Source of the DNA: a virus
DNA length: 64,000 bases
IMG/VR virus record: IMGVR_UViG_3300026532_000001
Reading direction: 5' to 3' (one strand)
Numbering within the stretch: position 1 is the stretch's first letter; the number at the start of each line of letters is the position of its first letter. Position numbers and translations under genes: made by a program. The notes under the pieces are model-generated. The model ran no database searches and was not told where the DNA came from. It saw nothing but the letters and a program-made list of their open reading frames with translations. Positions 2,247 to 58,995 of the stretch are shown here, one piece after another.

Positions 2247-2921
2247 ATGGGCAACAACAGTATCATTGAACATCGTGGGAGTTATTACTATGTTGCACTT
2301 CGAGAGGAATATCTTACTATCTGCTTGAAGGCAACATACAAGAAACAGGTCAAGGCGAAATCTGGATGTAAAGCCTCACCACACTGTAAAGCTTTCATCC
2401 TAGATATCCTAGAGCACTGGACAAATACGAAAAGAGGCAGAGGAGAGGATTTAGCCGTGTTTATGACGTATCAGCAGTGGTCAGACTCCATGTATGGCAT
2501 GTTTGGGCGTACTGCCATAATCGATAGTCTTGATGAATTGATCGGTGAAGGGCTGGTCTTTAAAGAGCCTTATAAGATGCCAGGGAACAAAGATACTTAC
2601 CAATATCGACTCAACTATCAGGAACTTAATAGACGAATAAAGCAGCTTCCAGAGCGCAATCCCTATGATACACGTCCACAAATGAACGCGTCCACAAGTA
2701 AATCGGACCCGTCCACAAGTAAACGGGTCACCCGTCCACAAGTGGATGCATACCCGTCCACAAGTAAACGCAACATAGATACTACACAGACACCTTCCAC
2801 AAACTCGCATAGAAAAGAGCCCTCCTCATTTTCAAAAGCAGCACCAGGACAAGCTCGGTCATCCTATGATGACCCCGATTATGTAGATGACACCTTTTAT
2901 CCATCAAAAGGAGCAAATTAG
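2247..2921 (+). CDS. putative replication initiator (iteron-containing gene, lambda O-like arrangement)
   Basis: Lies directly upstream of, and overlapping, the DnaC-like loader. Its C-terminal third is encoded by the iteron array (PSTSK repeats). ATG 2247 is preferred over TTG 2190. Confidence 0.45.
   Translation: MGNNSIIEHRGSYYYVALREEYLTICLKATYKKQVKAKSGCKASPHCKAFILDILEHWTNTKRGRGEDLAVFMTYQQWSDSMYGMFGRTAIIDSLDELIGEGLVFKEPYKMPGNKDTYQYRLNYQELNRRIKQLPERNPYDTRPQMNASTSKSDPSTSKRVTRPQVDAYPSTSKRNIDTTQTPSTNSHRKEPSSFSKAAPGQARSSYDDPDYVDDTFYPSKGAN
2674..2803. repeat. iteron array, six copies of core TCCACAA (four as CCGTCCACAAGT[A/G])
   Basis: Cores at 2675, 2691, 2712, 2735, 2757 and 2796. The inner spacings are 21-23 nt, about two helical turns. 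Confidence 0.8.
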
Positions 2922-3760
2922 TGGAACACATAAACGAGACGCTTAACCGGATGGACATGAAACGGAAACTATTTATTGTTCCCCCGCCTCAACCTGAAGC
3001 CGAGTGCTCTGCCTGCCAGGACAAAGGATGGACACGCCGTGATGAGTACGGTCCTGAGACTGGCTATAGATCGGTGTTAGTCCCTTGCCCTAGCTGCACA
3101 CCAGAAAGGCGGGCTAAGCAATCTGAGATTATGCAAGCCAGGCTGGTAGATAGACTCTTTGGCGGTTCGCAGATCCCCTACAAAGCCCGTGATTGGGAGT
3201 TTGATACCTTTCCTGAGAACGGTGACCAGGACGCCCGTGCCCTGGTCGAGCACTTTGTCCAGACCCACAGGGATATGACAGATGAGACCAGCAAACGTGG
3301 TCTATGGCTAGCGGGTACCCTTGGCAGAGGCAAGACAGGGCTCTCAATTTGTACACTCAAAGAATTTATGCGAGCTGGTCATCTCTCGTTATTCGTCTCG
3401 ACTCCTCAACTGATGGATAGGCTACGGGCTACCTTTGAGAAGGACTCCGATGAGAGTCAAGACGAGCTGCTCAAGGTGATAACCGAGGTGCCTTTCCTCG
3501 TCCTAGACGATTTGGGAGTCGAGAAACCGACCGTCTATGTGTTGGAGCGTTTCTATCTGATTGTCGACAAGAGGCAAAGCAGAGGGCTTTATACGATATT
3601 CAGCAGCAATCTTAGCACAAAGGATCTAGAAGCCTACTGGCGACCGTCTGACGTGCTTCCCGGTGGCTTCCACCCGGGACTTCGGATTGTCGAGAGGATA
3701 CGCGAGTATTGTATGGGCGTGAGTATCAAAGGCGGGAATTTGAGGGAAACGAGATGGTAG
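2921..3760 (+). CDS. DnaC/IstB-like AAA+ helicase loader with an N-terminal Cys4 zinc ribbon
   Basis: Walker A GTLGRGKTGLS, Walker B FLVLDDLGVEK, sensor-1-like TIFSSN. N-terminal CSACQD...CPSC. GTG start overlaps the upstream stop. Confidence 0.8.
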   Translation: MEHINETLNRMDMKRKLFIVPPPQPEAECSACQDKGWTRRDEYGPETGYRSVLVPCPSCTPERRAKQSEIMQARLVDRLFGGSQIPYKARDWEFDTFPENGDQDARALVEHFVQTHRDMTDETSKRGLWLAGTLGRGKTGLSICTLKEFMRAGHLSLFVSTPQLMDRLRATFEKDSDESQDELLKVITEVPFLVLDDLGVEKPTVYVLERFYLIVDKRQSRGLYTIFSSNLSTKDLEAYWRPSDVLPGGFHPGLRIVERIREYCMGVSIKGGNLRETRW

Positions 3761-5542: not shown

Positions 5543-7053
5543 TGTCTATTTTTGCTCTATTAGTTGCCCAAACGCCCATATCACACGGTGATCCTGGTGT
5601 AAGCAACGCATCCAATGTCATGCCGTTTCGCATGCAAGAGAGCCTCTATGCACGTCCAACACCACAAACGCCAATAGAGGACGATGAGGATCGCATTGGA
5701 CTGGAACCCGCAGAGCTCCAGATAGCCAATTTGCGCAAGGCAGAGGCAGCACTCATCCGCATGGTGGCCAGTTATCCACTCCCCGCAAACTCAGCACTAG
5801 CGGATGCTTTGCAGCAGCTTTCAGCAGAGGAGTTTGTTGCCTCTGCTTTTGTGTACTCACTCATTGCCCAGTTGAACCCGATGAATAAGGGAGATGGCTC
5901 TGGGCTCTTTAGCGGCATAGATCGCTACAATATGCTGCTCAAGCGTCTGGGGATTGTCTCAAATCAGTTCAATACCTCATTCTTCACGCTCTATTCAAGC
6001 CTCCTGAATGAATTGCTCATCAATGAGACACTGCCGCATTTTGTTGATCAACTCTATCCGTTTGCAGGTCTTCCACGCGGCTTGCAACAGTCCGTGATTG
6101 CTACACTGGGCAAAGAGCGCCAATCTGTCATCAGCATAGCCAGAGCGTGGTACAACGCCATCAAAGAGGCAAAAGAGAACAATCCAGATTGGGAGAAATG
6201 GGAAAGCATCTATTATGATCCTACTGGCAAGGTCTCAGGGAGCAGCTTAGACGATGCAGAAGCGGCTATTCCGCATATCAGTGGCAATGCATTCAGACAC
6301 TCCATCTTTCGAGAGATATTGTGTACGCATCTCTTGCAGGTATTGGAGTTTGGGTCGGTTGCCGATGTCGTCAAGAGTAATCTCATGCCTCCATATGTGA
6401 TCATGCTGCTCTCCAATGGCGGCAATATGGCGGCAAAAAGCACAGCACCTGACAATAGCGAGGCTATCAGTGCTACGATCAAGCGCACGTTCCCGTCTCT
6501 CGAACTGGTCTCAGGTGTGCTTCCAACGCACATTATGGGAGAAGGGGCTTTAAGAGTCGCTAATTGGACACTATGCCTGCAGAATAATGCCAATACAGCG
6601 GCATACGGCTATACGCGTGATATAGAGGCTGCTGCAACCCTAACTATTGTCACACATGCACGTCATGTTCCTGACGGTATGGATCATTCGAAAGAGTCGG
6701 GTCAGGGGCTTTTTGCCTATACTGCCATGAAGCCCGGGGCTCGTATCCTGATGAAACTGGACTTTCATCCATTCACCAGCGAGTTGGCCCGTGGAGCTGC
6801 ATACTTTGCGTTCAAAGAGTGGATAGCACGCGGTGCTCAAGTTGGAGGTCGCGAAGGGAGCGGATCAGGTCATTTTCTTGTGCCGGAGATCTCTATCCGT
6901 CCGTCATCAACGTTTGAGGATGAGAGTCTTGAGCAGTATGAGGATTATGCGCAAGAATATCAAGAATATGTTCAAGCCAACAAAGAGGTGCTACGAGAGG
7001 CATTGATGTACGGAACACTTGGCTGGCGTGAGAGGCTTAAGGCATGGGGATAG
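5542..7053 (+). CDS. Cas7-group RAMP-like protein (Csf2/Csm3/Cmr4-like motifs) with a large internal insertion
   Basis: ATG 5542 overlaps the upstream TAA (TAATG). Motifs: ALLVAQTPISHGD, IPHISGNAFRHSIFRE (nt 6268-6315), and G-loop VGGREGSGSGHF (nt 6841-6876). The functional call is inference. Confidence 0.45.
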   Translation: MSIFALLVAQTPISHGDPGVSNASNVMPFRMQESLYARPTPQTPIEDDEDRIGLEPAELQIANLRKAEAALIRMVASYPLPANSALADALQQLSAEEFVASAFVYSLIAQLNPMNKGDGSGLFSGIDRYNMLLKRLGIVSNQFNTSFFTLYSSLLNELLINETLPHFVDQLYPFAGLPRGLQQSVIATLGKERQSVISIARAWYNAIKEAKENNPDWEKWESIYYDPTGKVSGSSLDDAEAAIPHISGNAFRHSIFREILCTHLLQVLEFGSVADVVKSNLMPPYVIMLLSNGGNMAAKSTAPDNSEAISATIKRTFPSLELVSGVLPTHIMGEGALRVANWTLCLQNNANTAAYGYTRDIEAAATLTIVTHARHVPDGMDHSKESGQGLFAYTAMKPGARILMKLDFHPFTSELARGAAYFAFKEWIARGAQVGGREGSGSGHFLVPEISIRPSSTFEDESLEQYEDYAQEYQEYVQANKEVLREALMYGTLGWRERLKAWG

Positions 7054-7646
7054 CACACGTTGTTGTCATTCCTACGGTAAGCGAGCGGTCTACATATTGC
7101 GAGCAGACCGCATATCAATGGCACAATCTCGGATACGATGTAACCGTGTCTTGTCAATCTGACAATATCCCATGTTCTCCTAAACAGCATGGGATAATCG
7201 CTATTGCATCTTTGCGCAAGTCTTACAACAAAGAGCCTCTTGTCTTCTGTGAAGACGATGTGAGCATTGATAGACGTATTGCAGATATACGAATACCTGA
7301 AGAAGTCCATGCACTTACATTCTATTTACCCGGCAAGCGATTTTATCCACGTCGTATACTAACTACTCCAATACTAGAGCCTGAAGTATTTCAAATCATT
7401 AATCTCAAAGAGTGGTTTGGCACACAATGTATCTGGTTATCTTCTTCAACTATTGAAGCTCTTCTAGAAGCGGATCATGCCCCAGCAGGCTTTGATACTA
7501 TCCTGAGAACCTATCTCCTACAACACAATCTCCTTATGCATAGTATTATCCCAAATCTTGTACAACACCTATCCCCACCTTCAATAACATCAAAGCGATA
7601 TCATCCACACAAAAGCATCACATTTGGAGTAGAGCACCATGCGTGA
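7044..7646 (+). CDS. GT-A-fold glycosyltransferase-like protein (GT2/GT25-like)
   Basis: N-terminal VVVIPTVSER strand and an FCEDDV (DxD-like) motif. Has a 10-nt overlap with the upstream gene. Weak motif-level call. Confidence 0.3.
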   Translation: MGIAHVVVIPTVSERSTYCEQTAYQWHNLGYDVTVSCQSDNIPCSPKQHGIIAIASLRKSYNKEPLVFCEDDVSIDRRIADIRIPEEVHALTFYLPGKRFYPRRILTTPILEPEVFQIINLKEWFGTQCIWLSSSTIEALLEADHAPAGFDTILRTYLLQHNLLMHSIIPNLVQHLSPPSITSKRYHPHKSITFGVEHHA

Positions 7647-8442
7647 TATAGAGCGTTTGCAATTTGAGATGCATGCCAAACTACCAGCATTCAAGAGAAA
7701 GGTCGAACGGGCACAAGCAATTATCGATGAAGCTCTAGCTTTAAATGTACCATTCTATATAGCCTTCAGTGGAGGCATTGACTCAACTTGTCTTTTAGAT
7801 CTCATATGGCAAGTAAAGCCTAATAGTGCCATCTATTGGATTGATGATGGTGCCGATTATCCTGAAACGTTACAATTCGTGCAAGATACCTCAATTCGGT
7901 ATAGATTTCCGCAAAAATACATTAGGGGGGTAAAAGCATGGAAACAGTGGTGCGTCGAGATGGGTAGACCGGATCTGCAATCTGGAGAAGCTATGGATAG
8001 CGCATGGATGAATCCTCTGGTCCCATGGCACGGATATTGGCTCTCTGACACACAATATGCGAAATGGCTGCAATCGGAAGGTATAGGGCTGGTCTTTCTT
8101 GGCACGCTAGCGTGTGAGAGCAGCAAAAGACGCATGATACTCAAAGGTGGGTACAGGCCACTCTATCAGGTCAAGACAGAATACGGCATGTGGCACTGTT
8201 CCCCTCTGGCATCGTGGGATAAAAAGGACATATGGGCATACGCTATATCTAACAATCTTCCATACAATCCTGTATACGATAAGCTTGCAGAGCTAGGTTT
8301 GCCATTAGAGAGAAGACGTGTTGCTCCTCTGACATGCTACAAGGTCACACAATTTGGTTCTGTAGCATTTTTACGTTCTGGATGGCCTGGACTGTATAAC
8401 ATGCTGAGTGCGACCTTCCCAAAGGTCCGGGAATATAGTTAG
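7639..8442 (+). CDS. PAPS reductase / CysH-family PP-loop protein
   Basis: FSGGIDSTCLLDL PP-loop, WIDDGADYPET, and C-terminal WHCSPLASWDKKDIWAY...LPYNPVYD. Has an 8-nt overlap with the upstream gene. Confidence 0.8.
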   Translation: MRDIERLQFEMHAKLPAFKRKVERAQAIIDEALALNVPFYIAFSGGIDSTCLLDLIWQVKPNSAIYWIDDGADYPETLQFVQDTSIRYRFPQKYIRGVKAWKQWCVEMGRPDLQSGEAMDSAWMNPLVPWHGYWLSDTQYAKWLQSEGIGLVFLGTLACESSKRRMILKGGYRPLYQVKTEYGMWHCSPLASWDKKDIWAYAISNNLPYNPVYDKLAELGLPLERRRVAPLTCYKVTQFGSVAFLRSGWPGLYNMLSATFPKVREYS

Positions 8443-8526
8443 AACGCCTGTTTCTTGACTCGTGGCCTAGACTCGGTTCGTAGTAGTGCGACTATTGTCG
8501 ACAGAGCCTAGACAGAGGTAGACACT

Positions 8527-9255
8527 ATGCGGTACTTTAATGCTGTGAAAGCAGGACGTGCACTTGGTATTTCAGACAAGACGATAAGGCGTTATATTGA
8601 GAAAGGTAGAATAAAGGCTATTCGGAAAGAGTCAGGGGAATTGGCTATAGCTGAGTCTGAAGTCGAGAAACTGAGGCGAGAGATAGAACAGGAGCGGCTT
8701 CAATTCGGAGAGTCTAGACTCGGTAGCTATGCTGCGGACAGTACAGGGTTGAACACTACCGAGATGTCTAGACAGGTGGAGACCTTGGAAGCTCGCATAG
8801 CCCAGCTTGAGCACCAACAACCAGAAATTACCGTACTCACGCGCGAGCTGGGCAAGCTTGCCGCTCGCTGTGATGTGCAGCAGGCCCACATCGAAGAGCT
8901 CGAACGTCGCATAGCATCCCTGGAGTCCAGAGACTATCCTGGCATCGCCCAGAACGTGCCTACACCACCTGCACCGTCTCCAACCACTCAGAATACTATT
9001 CCTCCCCAAGAGGCCCAGAAATCGAAGGTAGAGCCAAACAGAAAAGGTATGCTCTCGGCCTCAGACTTTGCCATGCAGCTCGGCATCAAGTACGACGATA
9101 TCAAGAATTACATGCGACGTGGTGTAAATGGTGAGATGCTAGACTTTACAGAGGTGCAGCATGCTACAAGGGCAGGATACAGCATGAAATATTTCACGGT
9201 AGATCAGCAGCAGAAGGCGCTAGAGGTGTTGAAGAGACATGGGAAAATAAAATAG
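8527..9255 (+). CDS. DNA-binding protein (excisionase/MerR-type HTH, coiled coil, C-terminal domain)
   Basis: N-terminus AGRALGISDKTIRRYIEKGRIKA, followed by a heptad-rich central region. Confidence 0.5.
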   Translation: MRYFNAVKAGRALGISDKTIRRYIEKGRIKAIRKESGELAIAESEVEKLRREIEQERLQFGESRLGSYAADSTGLNTTEMSRQVETLEARIAQLEHQQPEITVLTRELGKLAARCDVQQAHIEELERRIASLESRDYPGIAQNVPTPPAPSPTTQNTIPPQEAQKSKVEPNRKGMLSASDFAMQLGIKYDDIKNYMRRGVNGEMLDFTEVQHATRAGYSMKYFTVDQQQKALEVLKRHGKIK

Positions 9256-12791: not shown

Positions 12792-12876
12792 GGCAATTCA
12801 TGTATAAGAGAGTATCCCCGTCCTGCAATGCGCATGGATGTGGAAATAGTCCCGAAAGGGAGAAGGGACAAATCAA

Positions 12877-13152
12877 ATGAACTAGAAGAATGCAAAGAAT
12901 TCAGGTGAGGAGCGTGGTAAGCGCTTTCTCCGCCACAATCCAGATGTCTCGAAGGCAGAGTTCGAGTCCCACGGGCGCACTATCGCCCAAATGGAGACGC
13001 GGTGGATACCGACACAGGATCTCTTCATCGAAGGGTGGAATAGCGTCTGGAAGGAGCCAGAACAGCCCAAAGTCATCCCGATCAAGCGGGACGTGCTCGA
13101 CGCGCCACTGAACGGGAATAGGGGCTTCCCAAGTTTGAAGTTAGTATCATAG
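12877..13152 (+). pseudogene. small ORF with an in-frame TAG at codon 3 (amber allele, readthrough or reinitiation)
   Basis: The conserved junction/SD motif (12847-12862) precedes ATG 12877. Reading is ATG AAC TAG, then 88 open codons (KNAKNSGEERGKRFLRHNPDV...) ending at TAG 13150-13152. Confidence 0.35.
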
Positions 13153-13182
13153 TCCCGCAATGCGGGAAAGGAGCATTTTGTC

Positions 13183-13374
13183 ATGAAACTCACGAAACAT
13201 TATCGCGACTCCCTGGATAATCCCATCTGCACGGAGTGTGCAGGGATTTCAATCCTCAAGCTCACCACGCAAGAGGGCGTGGAAGAGCCCACACAAAACT
13301 ACGAGCCTCTTGAGTGTGCTGGGTGTTTCAATCTCATCCTGCTAGAGGACGAGGCAGAGGCTAATAGCCCCTAG
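13183..13374 (+). CDS. small zinc-ribbon protein
   Basis: 63 aa with CTEC...CAGC. Preceded by the junction motif. Confidence 0.5.
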   Translation: MKLTKHYRDSLDNPICTECAGISILKLTTQEGVEEPTQNYEPLECAGCFNLILLEDEAEANSP

Positions 13375-35426: not shown

Positions 35427-36419
35427 TTAGAGCAGGCGTCCTCCCTCGGGCCATTCCCAGGGGAATTTATTCCCTTTGCTGAGGTTGCAAGTAGGGCAAG
35501 TCAATACCAAGTAGTCAATACTGTTAGCAGGAATATCGCTGCCAGTAACTCTGCTGAGTGGAAAGGTGTGTTCGATGTGGTAGATATACTTGCCCCTAGT
35601 CTTCTGGAATTTAGCATGTCCACAAGCAGCATAATAGCATCTGCCTTTCTGCCGCTTCAGTTGCTCTTGGATTTGAGCACTGGTATGTTTGCCTTCGATG
35701 CCCTTTTTTCTTGCTCTGTAGGCATGGCCTATTGTTTGATACATTACCTTGTTCTGCTGGTAATGTCTCTTATGGCGATCCTTAGTGTATTCTTTGTGTG
35801 CTTGATAGTATCGTTTGCTTCGTTTAGAAACGTGGTCTTTGTTAATCTCATTGTACTCCTTACAGTACTCTTTGTGCTCTTCTTTATGTGTATCGTTCCA
35901 GATTTTTTGACGTGCAAGGCGCTTGCCTCTGATTGTGGGTCGCATGCTATACTCTTTGCCTCTTTTGCTCTTGCATCCCTTGCATTGATAGTCAAACCTT
36001 ATTTCTTGCGCTGCACTACGATGAAAAAACTCTTCAGTCAATGGGTAGATGCTCTTGCATGTAGGACATCGCCTGTGCCCTTCAGGGACATCTGTGGTTT
36101 TAGGAGGTCTGGCAAGGCACTTCTTGCAATAAGGGTACAATCCGTCACTCCTCCCTTTGGCTCTAGAGAAGAAATCTACAGTAGCAGGCTTGATTTCTTT
36201 ACATTTGCTGCATCGCTTATGACCTTCTGGTATAGCAATGTGGGGCTTTTCCTTATTTTCTTTGTTGGATATCATTACACAGCTTTTGCACTGAGTATTG
36301 AGCCCATCTTTTTGGCGTTTATGGGAGAAAAAATGTTCTTTGGTAGCAGGAAAGAATTGGTTACATTTCCTGCATTGCTTGAGGGGAACATTGACGTTCT
36401 GGGGTACAATATCACTCAT
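35427..36419 (-). CDS. free-standing HNH homing endonuclease with four tandem Zn-ribbon modules
   Basis: Repeats of the form KxCxKCxxxxPxxxxxFxxxxxxxDGLxxxCKxC. HNH core YHIEHTFPLSR...CPTCNLSKGNK. Own promoter. Antisense to the late operon. Confidence 0.85.
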   Translation of the reverse strand: MSDIVPQNVNVPLKQCRKCNQFFPATKEHFFSHKRQKDGLNTQCKSCVMISNKENKEKPHIAIPEGHKRCSKCKEIKPATVDFFSRAKGRSDGLYPYCKKCLARPPKTTDVPEGHRRCPTCKSIYPLTEEFFHRSAAQEIRFDYQCKGCKSKRGKEYSMRPTIRGKRLARQKIWNDTHKEEHKEYCKEYNEINKDHVSKRSKRYYQAHKEYTKDRHKRHYQQNKVMYQTIGHAYRARKKGIEGKHTSAQIQEQLKRQKGRCYYAACGHAKFQKTRGKYIYHIEHTFPLSRVTGSDIPANSIDYLVLTCPTCNLSKGNKFPWEWPEGGRLL

Positions 36420-36829: not shown

Positions 36830-37429
36830 ATGAGTATCAGTATACCATCTTCAAAAATATGCATCCATTGCCACCAAGAAAAGTCCCCCGATGATTTCTA
36901 CTATCCCTACAAAAATGTCTGCAAGCAATGTAATCTGGCCTATCAAAAAAGAGAGAGGCAAAGAATAAAGCTTCAGCAGCAGTCATTTCCACCTCCTGAT
37001 GTTAATCAGACAAAACAGTGCAGAGCATGCAAAGAGATCAAAAATGTTGAGGCCTTTAAAAAGGATAAAGGGACGCGTGGGGGGTACATATCTCTTTGTA
37101 AGGCGTGTCATGTTAAGGAAGAGTATAAGAGGTCAACGACGAACCCCAATAGAACGCCCTCACGTCGATGGAAAAAGATAAATTTTACATACAAGGAGTA
37201 CTGCCGAATGCTAGAAGAGCAAGGCGGTGTGTGTGCTATCTGTAAACAGTCGGAAACTATTGTCAATCGTGCTCATAATACGCCTCTTCAGCTTGCAGTT
37301 GATCACAATCACGATACCGGACAGGTTCGCTCATTACTTTGCAGTGCCTGTAATTTAGCTGTAGAGAGAGTAGAAAGAGATATAGAGTATCATAAAAGCT
37401 TGCTTGCATACCTGGAACTTCACTCATGA
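36830..37429 (+). CDS. Zn-ribbon / endonuclease VII-family homing endonuclease
   Basis: Two Zn-ribbon modules like the HNH paralogs. The C-terminus QGGVCAICKQ...LAVDHNHDTGQVRSLLCSACNLAVE is EndoVII type. Confidence 0.8.
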   Translation: MSISIPSSKICIHCHQEKSPDDFYYPYKNVCKQCNLAYQKRERQRIKLQQQSFPPPDVNQTKQCRACKEIKNVEAFKKDKGTRGGYISLCKACHVKEEYKRSTTNPNRTPSRRWKKINFTYKEYCRMLEEQGGVCAICKQSETIVNRAHNTPLQLAVDHNHDTGQVRSLLCSACNLAVERVERDIEYHKSLLAYLELHS

Positions 37430-55077: not shown

Positions 55078-55614
55078 ATGTTTAAGAGAAGAAAATACAC
55101 AATAGAAGAGCATATCAAGTTCACAGGCATCGTTAAGGCGCGTGAGTTGCCCGCTGGCTGTACGCGGGAAGACTTCCTAGGCTGGTGGCCTAGACTTTCT
55201 GAAAAGGAGAGGGAGCGCTATACCGCTTATGAGCATAAAAATATTTTAACAAATAGTGGCAGAAATCAGCTATTAAATTTCATAGCATCAAATAATGTCG
55301 TTGTTGGCGCATTTGCTCAATACTTTGCGGTGGGAACCTTCCCCATCACGTCGGTTAGTCCTGGGGATACTCAGGTCCAAACCGAGATTTTCAGAGCCGT
55401 GCCGACATTGATCACGCTTACAGGTCAGCAAGTGAACATCTCGACCTATTTCGGCCCCAGTCAGGCTAACGGGAACTATACAAATTGTGGATTGTGGGGA
55501 ATTAATGCAAGTGCCACTTTGAGCAGCGGTACGCTCATGACGCACGCGTTATACACATACAGTAAAATTAACAATCAGGCCATAACTAATGATTACCTTC
55601 ATGTCGTGCAATAG
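55078..55614 (+). CDS. tail-associated protein
   Basis: 178 aa in the tail module. Confidence 0.45.
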   Translation: MFKRRKYTIEEHIKFTGIVKARELPAGCTREDFLGWWPRLSEKERERYTAYEHKNILTNSGRNQLLNFIASNNVVVGAFAQYFAVGTFPITSVSPGDTQVQTEIFRAVPTLITLTGQQVNISTYFGPSQANGNYTNCGLWGINASATLSSGTLMTHALYTYSKINNQAITNDYLHVVQ

Positions 55615-55713
55615 GAAGCAAAAGGTGGCATTATATTGTCAAGTCAACTAAAAGTAAAAAATATAGCTCAAACATTTTATTTGTTTGAGCTATCACATAG
55701 GGAAATTGAGAGA

Positions 55714-56670
55714 TTAGACACCTCTACGTTGACGAGCTGTCATTTCAGAGGGCAGCTTCTTGCCCTTTCTCCTATTACAGACATGGTGAGTTGCTGCAAG
55801 GTTCTCCTCGCTATGAGGTCCTCCGCGAACAATGGGGATCACGTGGTCAAAATCAATCTTATGATGAGGGAGAATAGGCTTTTCGCAGATATAGCAAATG
55901 CCGTTACTCTTTGCAAGAACGCTTCTGTAATTTACTTTGCCAGTAGTGACTCTCTTCTTGAATGCATATCTCCTTCTGCTATATTCTATTACTTTCAAAG
56001 AGTTTTCTTTTCTCCAATTCTTTGTGTACTCAGACATCAACAGCGGATTCTCTGCTTTCCACCTTTCGTTGAGAGCGCGATGCGCATCCTTGTTATTCCT
56101 GTACCATCTCTTCCCTGTTTCAAGTCTACGTTGCCTGTTAGCAGGAATTGCATAAGAATCACGGTTATGCGTTTGTGTGCACTCTTTGCACCAGATATTA
56201 TAACCAGATTTATTGCGATTGTCCTTGGTAAATTCGCTAAATGGCTTCTCAGCCCGACATTGGGAACAAACCTTCCCACCATTCAATGCTGCAGGCAAAG
56301 GCTGTATTTTCCTTCCCTCCCTATCAGCACGGACCTGTCCTGCCTCGCTAATACATGTTTTGCAATGAGACGTATACCCACCTGTGTCTTTACGCTTGTG
56401 GAATTCCGTGATCGGTTGCTCTATAAGGCATCTGGAACAAACCTTCCCACCAGCCACAGCTTTAGGTTTGTTTCTAACAGGCACATAGTGTTCTTGGTGA
56501 TACTCTTTACTATTTGCCCGAATGCAGTCTTTGCAGCGAGCCGAGCATCCATGCTTACCACGGATATCCGCATAGAAGTCTTCAAGGGGCTTTTCTATCT
56601 GGCATTGCTTACAAACCTTGCCAGTAACAAAAAGAGGGAGTTGTTGAGCAGTATGATATGCTTCATTCAT
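55714..56670 (-). CDS. free-standing HNH homing endonuclease with tandem Zn-ribbon modules
   Basis: GKVCxxCxxEKPxxxF repeats. HNH core IDFDHVIPIVRGGPHSEENLAATHHVCNRRKGKK. Confidence 0.85.
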   Translation of the reverse strand: MNEAYHTAQQLPLFVTGKVCKQCQIEKPLEDFYADIRGKHGCSARCKDCIRANSKEYHQEHYVPVRNKPKAVAGGKVCSRCLIEQPITEFHKRKDTGGYTSHCKTCISEAGQVRADREGRKIQPLPAALNGGKVCSQCRAEKPFSEFTKDNRNKSGYNIWCKECTQTHNRDSYAIPANRQRRLETGKRWYRNNKDAHRALNERWKAENPLLMSEYTKNWRKENSLKVIEYSRRRYAFKKRVTTGKVNYRSVLAKSNGICYICEKPILPHHKIDFDHVIPIVRGGPHSEENLAATHHVCNRRKGKKLPSEMTARQRRGV

Positions 56671-56754
56671 GACGAAAAATCTCCAATCAGATTTAGTAGT
56701 CTAGGGCCTAGAGCGTGCTACCAACATGTTCTAGGGCCATTTTGTTGTGCCTCC

Positions 56755-56763
56755 ATTATACCT
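56755..56763 (-). promoter_or_regulatory. -10 element AGGTATAAT for HNH 55714..56670
   Basis: Minus strand GAGGTATAAT. Followed by a 5'-UTR hairpin ggccctaga...tctaggccc. Confidence 0.45.
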
Positions 56764-56798
56764 CATCAATCCCCATTTGTCTATCAAGGAGGTGCTTT

Positions 56799-57355
56799 TT
56801 GGCCCTAAATACCGTAACTACCGGAAACACCGTGCTCGCCGCTGACGTTAGGTTTGGCGTCCCTTGTCGGTAACGACATTGCAAAATCCTGGCTAAACGG
56901 GGAACGCTGAGATGCCAATCCCGTGCTAAATCAAATGCCGAGAGACTATACACCAGGCTCCCTAACGGGATGAAGATAGAGTCCGATCTTACAGGAAATG
57001 AACTGTAAGAGTGTAGCAGAAATGACTACATCCATCTCACATGAGATGAGTAACAAGAAGCAATCAATTGGTGCAAGTTTTGCAACGTGGTTCAGGACAG
57101 ACAGAGGCTGGTAAATGGTTTCTTTTCAGTGGGGGCTATCAAAACGGGTGGATTGTGAGCCAGTACATTGTTTCGCTCTCCAGAAACAGTACACCAAGCT
57201 CTGTAACTGTCGATACTGCCGATCAGGCTCCTACCCAGGCAGCAGGGACAGTTGCAACACAAAATCTTACTGCAAATGGCTTTGTAGTAGATTATGGCGT
57301 CAACGGGCTTACAAACACATCACGGGCAGGTGGGAATTACACCATACAATATTAA
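56799..57355 (+). CDS. intron-interrupted tail fibre-like gene, join(56799..56848,57061..57355), 114 aa
   Basis: AAGGAGG (56786-56792) lies 6 nt before TTG 56799. Exon 1 reads MALNTVTTGNTVLAADV. Splicing gives ...AADV|NQLVQVLQRGSG... in frame. Confidence 0.6.
56849..57060 (+). ncRNA. group I self-splicing intron (IA2, T4 td-like core), 212 nt, no ORF
   Basis: Core strings CTAAACGGGGAAC, CAATCCCGTGCTAAAT, AAATGCC and GACTAT...GATAGAGTC match what I recall of the T4 td intron. Pairings: P1 56844-48/56857-61 with a U-G wobble at the splice site; P3 56888-92/56953-57; P4 56897-902/56919-24; P9 hairpins. The last nucleotide is G 57060. Confidence 0.75.
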
Positions 57356-57370
57356 TTTTGGAGGTGATAC

Positions 57371-57460
57371 ATGAGAAGAATAGTTGTACACGCTATATGG
57401 ATTGCAGCACTTCTATTGTTCGCTTTTGAGCTATTTCACGGCTTATCACTCTTAGGATAG
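57371..57460 (+). CDS. small hydrophobic peptide (29 aa)
   Basis: GGAGGTGA SD. Translation is MRRIVVHAIWIAALLLFAFELFHGLSLLG. Below the ORF-track cutoff. Confidence 0.3.
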   Translation: MRRIVVHAIWIAALLLFAFELFHGLSLLG

Positions 57461-57465
57461 GAAAC

Positions 57466-58002
57466 ATGACAATACAAGCAATAACACAAGAAGGAATGCT
57501 GCACTGGACATGCATGGGGATGCAAATGGAGTGCCAGGAGCCTCTTTCAGCACACGTGTCAGAAGCTCGGTATGTTGGAGAAGCACAAGGGGCTGTAATC
57601 CACCTTCCACCTTGTTCAGCATGTGGTGGTGTATGCCAACTCAAAGCAGACTACAGCTTAAAAGAGCTGTTCAAGGAAACATTAACGATTGTAGACAATA
57701 TGGGCAATATCAAAGGGTATGCTATGCCGCTGCAATATTCTCGCAATCTGCTCATACACCACATGCTCTATCAGATGGGCAAAGCTGAGCATGCTCCAGT
57801 GTTGCCGATGCCAAACGAGGGATTTCTTGAGATGATGGTGCCGCTAGGGAATGCGGATCTGGCTTATTCCCTCTGGTTTTCGTGGGCGTTGCTGAGGGAG
57901 CGAGGGCAGATGGTAGCAAGCTTCGATCAATTCTTTTTAGGCTTCTCCGAGGGACTGGCTTTGCCGAAAGGAGGTTCTCATGCCAATCAAATCGATACAT
58001 GA
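57466..58002 (+). CDS. hypothetical Cys-containing protein
   Basis: 178 aa with CSACGGVC. Confidence 0.45.
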   Translation: MTIQAITQEGMLHWTCMGMQMECQEPLSAHVSEARYVGEAQGAVIHLPPCSACGGVCQLKADYSLKELFKETLTIVDNMGNIKGYAMPLQYSRNLLIHHMLYQMGKAEHAPVLPMPNEGFLEMMVPLGNADLAYSLWFSWALLRERGQMVASFDQFFLGFSEGLALPKGGSHANQIDT

Positions 58003-58369
58003 TGATGGGCACATATACAACAAATGTGTGAAATGTGGAAAGGATGTAACTCTGCACATATCTGATACACAATTGCAATATGTAGAAGGTTCAGATATGG
58101 TACAGCTTCCACCATGCCCGGGGTGTGGCTCTATCACCTCGCTCAGGACAGAGTTCACCGAGGAGGAAATGCAGGCCGACAACTTGATCACCTACGGCAT
58201 GATCCCGGAGCAACAGGTCCTGCCTCACGCGATCACTGGAGAGCCCATTCCTGTCATGATACCAGCCTACAAGCCCATTGGGGCGAATCCAATTGTAGAG
58301 CAGGCTGGGGAGCTGAAGAGGCAATTGGAGAAGGTAAACAAGAAGTCGCAGAGAGATAAGGACAAGTAG
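57980..58369 (+). CDS. zinc-ribbon protein
   Basis: AAAGGAGG SD. Contains KCVKCGK...CPGCGS. Confidence 0.5.
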   Translation: MPIKSIHDDGHIYNKCVKCGKDVTLHISDTQLQYVEGSDMVQLPPCPGCGSITSLRTEFTEEEMQADNLITYGMIPEQQVLPHAITGEPIPVMIPAYKPIGANPIVEQAGELKRQLEKVNKKSQRDKDK

Positions 58370-58371
58370 AT

Positions 58372-58995
58372 ATGGCATTCTCAGGACAATTAGTAGATCA
58401 GAGTGGGAGACCTATCAGCACCGGATACCTTCCCGATGGCGGCTTCACGGCGGTTGCATCCTCGCGAATGAAATTCACGGATGGTCAGCCTAACATCTCT
58501 GCTGGCGTCGTGACTGCTGACCAGATCAAAGAAGCAATCATGAACGGGCAAGGCTATAGCGCTACAACGGATAGTGTAAGTAACGCGGGTAACAGTGCTA
58601 CCGCTGGTTTCTCGATATTCAATGGCTCAGGAAGCGGAAAGAGCATCTTCATCTACAGCCTGACCTTCTTTGATAACGCTTTTAACGGGTCTCACCTTTT
58701 GAAGCTTGTTACCTCTAACCCTGCATTAGCAACAACAATCACGCCAAGAAACCGCAAGGCTGGCGGGGCTGCGTCGGCAATAGCGACTACTGTTACATTC
58801 CTGAACACTGGCTATACCCCGACCGGGACAACCATAGATATCTTTGCCTGTAGCGATACAGGTATGAATGATTTCTTGCAGGATAAAGGTATCCTTTTGC
58901 CACAGGGGAGTAACAACGGGCTGGTATTCGCTCCGTTCTTTTTTGCGACACAAACGCACTTCTTTGGTATCACAGCTCATTGGATTGAGTTCTAG
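58372..58995 (+). CDS. hypothetical beta-rich structural protein
   Basis: 207 aa. Composition and layout resemble 40691..41263. Confidence 0.45.
   Translation: MAFSGQLVDQSGRPISTGYLPDGGFTAVASSRMKFTDGQPNISAGVVTADQIKEAIMNGQGYSATTDSVSNAGNSATAGFSIFNGSGSGKSIFIYSLTFFDNAFNGSHLLKLVTSNPALATTITPRNRKAGGAASAIATTVTFLNTGYTPTGTTIDIFACSDTGMNDFLQDKGILLPQGSNNGLVFAPFFFATQTHFFGITAHWIEF

Follow-up and report, generated by a model that had tools for sequence, protein, structure and literature searches.

A compact group I intron without an open reading frame beside a free-standing HNH endonuclease gene: a candidate collaborative homing unit in an uncultured soil siphovirus

The 64,000-nt stretch of viral DNA analyzed here (IMG/VR record IMGVR_UViG_3300026532_000001, "the window" in what follows) carries a compact group I intron devoid of any open reading frame (ORF). 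The intron interrupts a small gene situated between the tail protein genes and the lysis genes, and lies next to a free-standing gene coding for an HNH endonuclease. A previous sequence-only reading of the window had described the element as a td-like intron splitting a small fibre-like gene, and had suggested that the neighbouring HNH gene may mobilise it. The analysis reported here establishes in silico, with very little room for doubt, that positions 56849-57060 are a genuine self-splicing group I intron. Its identity, boundaries, and structure, as well as its optional co-distribution with the HNH gene, are demonstrated by comparison with related phages. The intron and the adjacent 1.2-kb HNH cassette would move as a single unit, by collaborative homing, a reading to which a probability of about 0.55 is given.

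The boundaries are defined by the spliced product. The predicted splice (56799-56848 + 57061-57355) joins GCCGCTGACGT to CAATCAATTGGTG in frame and yields a protein of 114 residues, as had been proposed. A search of 5.8 billion proteins retrieved 34 homologues of this product, 111 to 136 residues in length and all with 100% query coverage. Aligned with these full-length, continuous sequences, the spliced protein shows no indel at the junction (AADV followed by NQLV), which coincides with the part of the family alignment where conservation is highest (consensus MALNTVTTGNTILAADVNQLVNVLQR). The intron-less alleles that the earlier reading had called for as a check exist: the spliced exon DNA (GCTGACGT followed by CAATCAATTGG) aligns gap-free to that of contig L001 (GCTGATGTAAATCAATTGG). 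The base 5' of the insertion point is an invariant T in 14 alleles, at the second position of a Val or Ile codon. An alternative in-frame 3' splice site, G57057, was rejected, as it adds a Ser seen in 0 of the 34 homologues and is also contradicted by the aligned 3' end of a related intron (intron 1 of locus L092, see below). The intron therefore has exactly the boundaries first proposed, with G57060 as its last nucleotide. The ORF finder sees just a 95-residue TTG fragment of the interrupted gene (57068-57355), the same that had been noticed before, and a 52-residue ORF that starts upstream, crosses exon 1, and ends in the intron at TAA 56871-73. It detects no nuclease ORF, remnant ORF, or pseudogene inside the intron, in keeping with the initial description. 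The identical HNH, intron, and gene arrangement is found in contigs from three different samples.

The Rfam group I intron model (RF00028), used in E-value mode, covers 56839-57005 end to end (model positions 1-253) with 37.1 bits (E=8e-8 in a local search, E=7.1e-6 across the window); it is the sole Rfam match at E<=0.1 in the window. The conserved core is present, with P3-P8, the P3/P7 pseudoknot, the P4-P6 domain, and the G-binding P7, all of which the Rfam alignment places identically. Every pair of P1-P9.2 and P10 is canonical when the U56848.G56857 wobble is included (Table 1). The helices drawn from the sequence (P1, P10, P2, P3, P4, P8, and three P9 hairpins) thus all hold, and P6, expected to be minimal, is. 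Dinucleotide shuffles of the intron fold worse (z=-3.3).

Searching with the sequence of the intron by nhmmer mostly recovers just the shared P4-P6 core, and a covariance model was therefore needed. This model, termed R1, consists of the window intron and its proposed structure, and was searched against ~630 kb of viral contigs fetched by core-sequence patterns. R1 matches many compact phage introns over their full length, the best of them reaching 57.5 bits. Among its 21 best matches, standard pairs occupy 94.9% of the cells, compared with 35-47% when the partners are slid by 1-3 columns, and both partners vary in 42 of the 49 pairs. The covariation score amounts to 0.48 against 0.04-0.08 in the slid controls. 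P3, P8, and the peripheral helices covary, and P4 hardly varies; the covariation count excludes P7, which forms a pseudoknot. The splice-site U.G is retained in 13 of 16 aligned relatives.

The core strings that had been likened to the T4 td intron are all found in the window at their assigned positions (CTAAACGGGGAAC, CAATCCCGTGCTAAAT, AAATGCC, and GACTAT...GATAGAGTC). The T4-type td loci of IMG/VR contain identical copies of CTAAACGGGGAAC, CAATCCCGTGCTAAAT, AAATGCC, and GACTAT, but read GATATAGTC in place of GATAGAGTC, a single substitution. The likeness thus comprises a 13-mer and a 16-mer of the core that are identical (J3/4-P4 and P4'-P6, respectively), the string AAATGCC....GACTAT, and a nearly identical 3' strand of P7; R1 matches td loci weakly (L014, 23.8 bits; L017, 23.1 bits; L012, 22.0 bits). 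The T4 td intron, of subgroup IA2, is ~1 kb long, holds the I-TevI ORF in its P6 loop, and has P7.1/P7.2 between P7 and P3', an insertion carried by td-type loci and by locus L035. In contrast, the J7/3 spacer between P7 and P3' of the window intron is only 3 nt long (ACA, 56950-52), and it therefore has no P7.1/P7.2. With this, a 2-bp P6, and no ORF, "td-like" applies to the P3-P7 core sequence only, and, judged from its sequence, the intron is not assigned to IA2 despite that core.

The 3' domain of the window intron (P8, J8/7-P7', P9, P9.1, P9.2, and a GUAACA-type tail) is common to L092 intron 1 and to the intron of L091; its part from P9 to the tail is not shared with td. The L9.1 loops are related, reading CAGAAAUGA in the window and L091, and GAUGGAAACAGU in L092 intron 1. 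The L091 intron (8261-9064, minus strand) interrupts a major-capsid-like gene in a GC-rich phage contig and harbors a LAGLIDADG ORF. Its 3' domain is the closest match to that of the window intron, R1 recognizing the 3' part of this larger intron. A core very close to that of the window, with P5 as CC...GG instead of GC...GC, is found in L010 (6340-7330, in a 174-kb viral contig), where a group I intron is located at the KLDG motif of a DNA ligase gene. This intron contains a 234-residue ORF, the zinc ribbon of which is 45% identical to that of the window HNH protein over 71 residues (E=3e-11), whereas its His-Me nuclease domain differs. L018, another close core relative, also has an intron ORF.

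The HNH gene had been placed ~130 nt upstream of the split gene; it lies 128 nt from TTG 56799, upstream and on the opposite strand. The protein combines three CxxC...CxxC zinc-ribbon repeats with an HNH domain at its C-terminal end. Pfam recognizes the latter at residues 259-311 (PF01844, E=4.8e-9, 36.7 bits for a cut-off of 21.4; HNH_5, E=2e-8), together with a Stc1-like zinc ribbon, and PHROG 1035 ("endonuclease VII") matches with E=8e-44. H276, N290, and H295 are invariant across 7 HNH homologues in the family alignment. Compared with L001 and L002, the window has here ~1.17 kb of inserted DNA, which separates the stop codon of the upstream gene from the ribosome-binding site of the interrupted one. 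A terminator-like hairpin falls between the upstream gene stop (55614) and the HNH stop (55714). At the other end, the 5' untranslated region of the HNH gene contains a hairpin, flanked by the HNH start codon and the promoter-like site, whose core, GCGTGCTACCAACA, occupies the same position in the L023 cassette (~3130-3170), with a variant, GTGCTTACAACG, in the L092 cassette (~3420-3460). This hairpin recurs in cassettes whose proteins share just 40-45% identity; it may serve to regulate the nuclease mRNA, or else act as a terminator on the plus strand. Both promoter hexamers, -10 and -35, are recognisable in the L092 cassette, and only the -10 is clear in that of L023. By these predicted signals, the HNH gene makes up an independent cassette, equipped with a promoter-like site and a terminator. 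Its sporadic distribution, its fixed slot, and these signals are consistent with a site-specific homing endonuclease. More distant HNH homologues (P0043 and P0045) were set aside, being found in unrelated contexts.

Intron and HNH gene are both optional among syntenic relatives. L001/L005 (94% protein identity) and L002 are syntenic with the window and have neither; ten further metagenome loci also lack both elements. Elsewhere, HNH homologues of 40-45% identity occupy the same slot, on the opposite strand and directly after a homologue of the window gene 55078-55614. In L092/L093/L110, the gene adjacent to this HNH is interrupted twice, by group I introns that Rfam supports (37.0 and 46.4 bits, both below the RF00028 gathering threshold). 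In L023 and L099, the adjacent gene is intron-less and reads ASDLYQLA----RPSG and ATDITQLCHILQR, respectively. The interrupted gene of L092 spans 3323-2476 (minus strand) and is identical in L093 and, at other coordinates, in L110. Its intron 1 (246 nt, 3288-3043, at nt 35 of the coding sequence) is a full-length R1 match (46.8 bits) with the same end motifs as the window intron, while intron 2 (257 nt, 3015-2759, at nt 62) belongs to a different lineage. The 5' splice site of the latter was placed by protein alignment; its P1 would have ~3 bp, the P1 placement by Rfam looking unreliable. Between them, a micro-exon of 27 nt (3042-3016) contains the insertion site of the window intron (nt 50). 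Removal of both introns results in a 114-residue protein colinear with the family, whereas the gene caller reports a chimeric 114-residue ORF starting inside intron 2.

These insertions and the changes in L023 and L099 converge on a segment of ~30 nt coding for D16-Q25. At its eight conserved positions, 31 of 35 family members have no deviation, three have one, and one has two. L023 and L099, HNH-adjacent and intron-less, have five and three deviations, respectively; the HNH-adjacent alleles that bear introns (window and L092) have none. When a segment is called disrupted if it contains an intron or at least three changes, and alleles are counted by independent lineage, disruption is observed in 4/4 HNH-adjacent lineages versus 0/13 HNH-free lineages (p=4e-4). 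A search of viral contigs with the HNH family alignment returned 80 loci, among which L110, of the L092 lineage, is the only one with the gene or a related intron.

Identity between the window and L001 also changes at the intron: exon 1 stands at 68% (16 mismatches, nearly all synonymous) and exon 2 at 85% (p=0.004), with BLAST resuming its match at 57062. Over a longer range, it is 71% at 55171-55595 and 68% at 56799-56848 upstream, and 85-92% at 57062-58995 downstream. Nuclease genes have been described at boundaries of genetic exchange in other phages (PMC10448857), a pattern that the step from 68% to 85% fits.

Following established group I chemistry, the transcript would fold into the P1-P9.2 structure, and an external guanosine bound in P7 would attack 3' of U56848, at the U.G wobble of P1. 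The 3'-OH of exon 1 would then attack after omega-G57060, with P10 aligning the 3' exon, and ligation of GACGU to CAAUC would restore the Val17 codon of the 114-residue protein. Disruption of the fold by ribosomes would be prevented by the stop codon (TAA) located in frame eight codons into the intron, and possibly also by the TTG, a weak start.

Some features of collaborative homing are found at this locus: an intron without endonuclease ORF, an adjacent free-standing endonuclease gene, and the optional presence of both among syntenic relatives. In this scheme, the HNH protein would cut the conserved ~30-bp D16-Q25 segment in relatives that have neither intron nor HNH gene, and repair from the donor genome would copy the cassette, exon 1, and the intron together. 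Since the donor intron splits the target segment, it would shield the donor from its own nuclease. Both the cleavage specificity of the HNH protein and the direction of transfer are inferred by us from these comparisons. A further-reaching and distinctly more tentative proposal is that a single, vertically persisting HNH lineage recognises the ~30-bp D16-Q25 sequence, and that phage lineages escaped self-cleavage in three ways: by one intron at nt 50, by two unrelated introns at nt 35 and 62, or by mutation or deletion of the target. Equally tentatively, nuclease pressure may have selected ectopic intron insertions, for instance by reverse splicing, anywhere in the recognition site.

Several observations weigh against these conclusions. 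At the level of the intron itself, the covariance-model check proposed in the sequence-only reading gave the end-to-end match described above, but its 37.1 bits are under the Rfam gathering threshold of 50, which is why a scan of the window at default thresholds returns no match. The covariation alignment was fitted to R1 and is thereby biased toward the structure, a bias offset only in part by the slid-partner control. It is nonetheless very improbable that the 212-nt insertion is a non-functional pseudogene merely resembling a group I core, for which the sub-threshold score would speak: every core and peripheral helix is intact, covariation supports the structure, the boundaries restore exactly the frame and the family consensus, both exons retain conserved protein sequence, and three independent metagenomes contain the identical arrangement. 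At the level of mobility, the association of HNH with intron presence alone is weak (2/4 versus 0/13, p=0.044). Furthermore, the two kinds of locus were collected differently: those bearing the HNH gene by HNH searches, those free of it by searches for the interrupted gene, in which one of two patterns extends across the junction. L092 intron 1 matches R1 but sits 15 nt from the window site, and is therefore not the product of simple homing. The most deviant HNH-free allele, P0002 (two deviations), was predicted to have an HNH gene beside it, yet none is present in the slot. Finally, L022 and L105/L106 possess the same HNH family in the same slot, after an upstream gene of ~180-200 residues, but followed by a gene that is not a homologue of the 114-residue protein; what the nuclease recognises may hence be the upstream gene, or another sequence.

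The last point is at the heart of an alternative that we consider possible but clearly less probable than collaborative homing, in which the intron is real but the HNH protein targets the upstream gene of ~180 residues, or the intergenic junction. The intron would then be a hitch-hiker or an independent resident, passively co-converted at ~0.2-1.2 kb from the cut, or mostly inherited vertically in very conserved sequence. Besides L022 and L105/L106, this would account for L094/L095, where a related HNH gene lies downstream of an intron-less allele, and for the window and L001 being least alike in the 3' part of the upstream gene (71%); group I introns, moreover, generally reside where a gene is most conserved, irrespective of any nuclease in the vicinity (PMC3984707). 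It leaves unexplained why the same ~30-nt segment is disrupted in every HNH-adjacent allele, by intron(s), substitutions, or deletion, when 13 HNH-free lineages of equal or greater overall divergence show no such disruption. The 3' end of the upstream gene in the window also retains the sequence of HNH-free relatives (GCCATAACTAA). A different and rather unlikely history is endonuclease turnover: the intron would once have held its own homing endonuclease ORF, since cleanly lost, and the HNH gene would be a later, unrelated arrival, so that a mobile intron in decay would adjoin a more recent selfish gene, the two not being a co-adapted pair. P6 is indeed collapsed to 2 bp and a 10-nt loop at the very place where I-TevI is lodged in td. 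ORFs are present, in other loops, within the introns of the closest core relatives (L010, with 234 residues; L018; L091, with a LAGLIDADG ORF), and turnover has been explicitly raised for such loci (PMC10448857). Conversely, the window intron contains neither a remnant ORF nor a pseudogene, and the association of HNH and gene is old enough to span lineages with 40-45% HNH identity. Turnover concerns origin, and is compatible with present-day collaborative homing. The suggestion that the HNH gene mobilises the intron is thus backed by the comparative data but stays a hypothesis, with a rival in which the nuclease is anchored to the upstream gene.

Collaborative homing is established for phage S-PM2 (psbA and F-CphI) and for T3/T7-like phages, and proposed for ICP1 (PMC6083498, PMC3984707, PMC10448857). 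In S-PM2, according to these accounts, F-CphI cleaves the allele devoid of the intron where the latter inserts, and the donor is protected by its intron (Zeng, Bonocora & Shub 2009, via PMC6083498 and PMC3984707). The two loci resemble each other in having a conserved phage gene interrupted and a free-standing nuclease gene of the His-Me/EndoVII type immediately beside it. They differ in that F-CphI lies downstream on the same strand, while the window HNH, with its three zinc-ribbon repeats, lies upstream on the opposite strand; in that the host gene is photosynthetic in one and structural in the other; and in that the cleavage specificity is proven for S-PM2 and putative for the window HNH. 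The annotated psbA join spans 1292 nt in the S-PM2 locus that was fetched. With a psbA coding length that we take to be ~1080 nt, its intron would measure 212 nt. As a candidate homologue, this intron was rejected: it scores 87.8 bits with Rfam but does not match R1, and the window locus would therefore work like the S-PM2 system without being homologous to it. By their descriptions, the DNA polymerase intron of T3/T7-like phages with its neighbouring HNH gene (Bonocora & Shub 2009) and the terminase intron of the Vibrio phage ICP1 with its adjacent T5orf172 nuclease (PMC10448857) are further likenesses, each combining an ORF-less intron, an essential or conserved gene, and a free-standing nuclease beside a short N-terminal exon. 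In ICP1, the tiny first exon is also overlooked by annotation pipelines. Both differ from the window in nuclease family, host gene, and host phylum.

The closest homologue of the 114-residue protein, P0001 (94% identity), is encoded on L001, which is syntenic with the window over the tape-measure protein, a 720-residue protein, a ~200-residue protein, the homologue, and a GH25 lysin. The 114-residue protein belongs to no Pfam or PHROG family, and the locus has no DNA or protein match among GenBank phages, hence no annotated close relative there. An AlphaFold model from the 35-sequence alignment (mean predicted local confidence, pLDDT, of 86) displays an N-terminal helix (residues 14-24) at the intron position, followed by a β-sandwich. 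Foldseek matches are weak (E=1e-3 to 0.1) but consistent in kind: C-terminal domains of tailspikes and R-pyocin fibres, H-type lectins, and phage tail-fibre proteins. The product may tentatively be regarded as a small tail-module, tail-fibre/lectin-like protein. The fibre-like label given at the outset stays tentative, because no Foldseek match is stronger than E=1e-3. Cellular homologues are confined to two prophage-like loci of Tengunoibacter tsumagoiensis (Ktedonobacteria, Chloroflexota), and the contigs derive from soil metagenomes. Both intron-bearing alleles start with TTG (window 56799, L092 3323), and the 15 intron-less alleles whose start was read have ATG. Speculatively, a weak TTG start might cut ribosome traffic over an intron starting 35-50 nt into the gene.

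Table 1. Features of the intron, the interrupted gene, and the HNH cassette in the window.
Feature	Position	Strand	Basis or remark
Group I intron, ORF-less, 212 nt	56849-57060	+	RF00028 match, canonical helices, covariation, spliced product
Shine-Dalgarno AAGGAGG of interrupted gene, 5 nt before TTG 56799	56787..56793	+	sequence
Exon 1, TTG start, encodes MALNTVTTGNTVLAAD + first two bases of Val17 codon	56799..56848	+	aligns with 34 homologue N-termini and L001 DNA
Exon 2, third base of codon 17 to stop codon	57061..57355	+	first 3 nt, CAA, form P10
P1	56844-48/56857-61	+	includes U56848.G56857 wobble at 5' splice site
P2	56865-78 (strands 56865-69/56874-78)	+	GUAA loop
In-frame stop TAA within intron	56871-73	+	
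P3	56888-92/56953-57	+	
P4	56897-902/56919-24	+	
P5	56906-07/56914-15	+	2 bp
P6	56925-26/56937-38	+	2 bp, 10-nt loop
P7	56944-49/56978-83	+	
P8	56959-70	+	
P9	56987-57010	+	
P9.1	57011-31	+	
P9.2	57033-48	+	
P10	56854-56/57061-63, UUG/CAA	+	pairs with 3' exon
Omega-G	57060	+	terminal base of intron
Free-standing HNH (His-Me finger) endonuclease gene, 318 residues	55714..56670	-	Pfam, PHROG, conserved residues
Terminator-like hairpin, 12-bp stem then T-run ATTTTTTACT, 3' end of HNH cassette	55663..55693	-	consensus match
Sigma-70-like promoter of HNH gene, TAGACA-17-TATAAT, 11/12 matches	56755..56783	-	consensus match, putative
Conserved hairpin, HNH 5' untranslated region	56707..56735		terminator-like score on plus strand

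Other elements of interest were observed in the window and in the fetched contigs. The window contains two more nuclease-like genes, back to back at 35427-36419 (minus strand) and 36830-37429 (plus strand); one has a weak HNH_4 match (E=8e-4), the product of the other contains an Endonuclease VII domain (E=3e-17), and both products weakly resemble the zinc-ribbon part of the 55714-56670 HNH protein. In L022, a contig from a related phage, an IS605-type TnpB/Cas12f-like gene (2438-3559) is inserted beside the HNH slot, and the 114-residue gene is missing. L035 displays twin td-type introns ~28 nt apart (6370-6921 and 7405-7965) in an anaerobic ribonucleotide reductase-like (nrdD-like) gene, an arrangement also found in L068, L069, and L073. 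A free-standing GIY-YIG-like ORF lies just downstream in L035, possibly a further case of intron plus free-standing nuclease. Phage genes with several introns are known, such as orf142 of Staphylococcus phage Twort. The L092 gene, with its two group I introns, and the twin introns of L035 are of this type, but the L092 introns are of different lineages, bracket the site of the window intron, and adjoin an orthologous HNH gene. In L011, a 169-kb viral contig, a group I intron match at ~12870-13190 is flanked by sequence resembling tRNA halves, with a GGTTCGAATCCC T-arm downstream; ARAGORN, run on L011, does not call the suspected intron-containing tRNA.

The kind of arrangement described here is known but rarely documented; new are the gene and the group of phages in which it is found, the way the nuclease is built, and a comparative series that spans several states; a literature search found no report of phage introns for the Ktedonobacteria/Chloroflexota group. 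For annotation, gene callers miss the interrupted gene and return a fragment of 94-95 residues in the window. For the biology of these phages, the locus provides a new setting, a group I intron in a structural gene, possibly tail-fibre/lectin-like, of an uncultured soil siphovirus. Units of nuclease and intron are increasingly viewed as weapons in the competition between phages (PMC11620839). Collaborative homing rests on very few worked examples, and is directly testable with this single gene family, for which DNA is available in all states: without HNH and intron, with HNH and one intron, with HNH and two introns, and with HNH and a mutated target. If the three routes of escape from self-cleavage proposed above hold true, these phages would capture, in nature, the origin and diversification of collaborative homing pairs.

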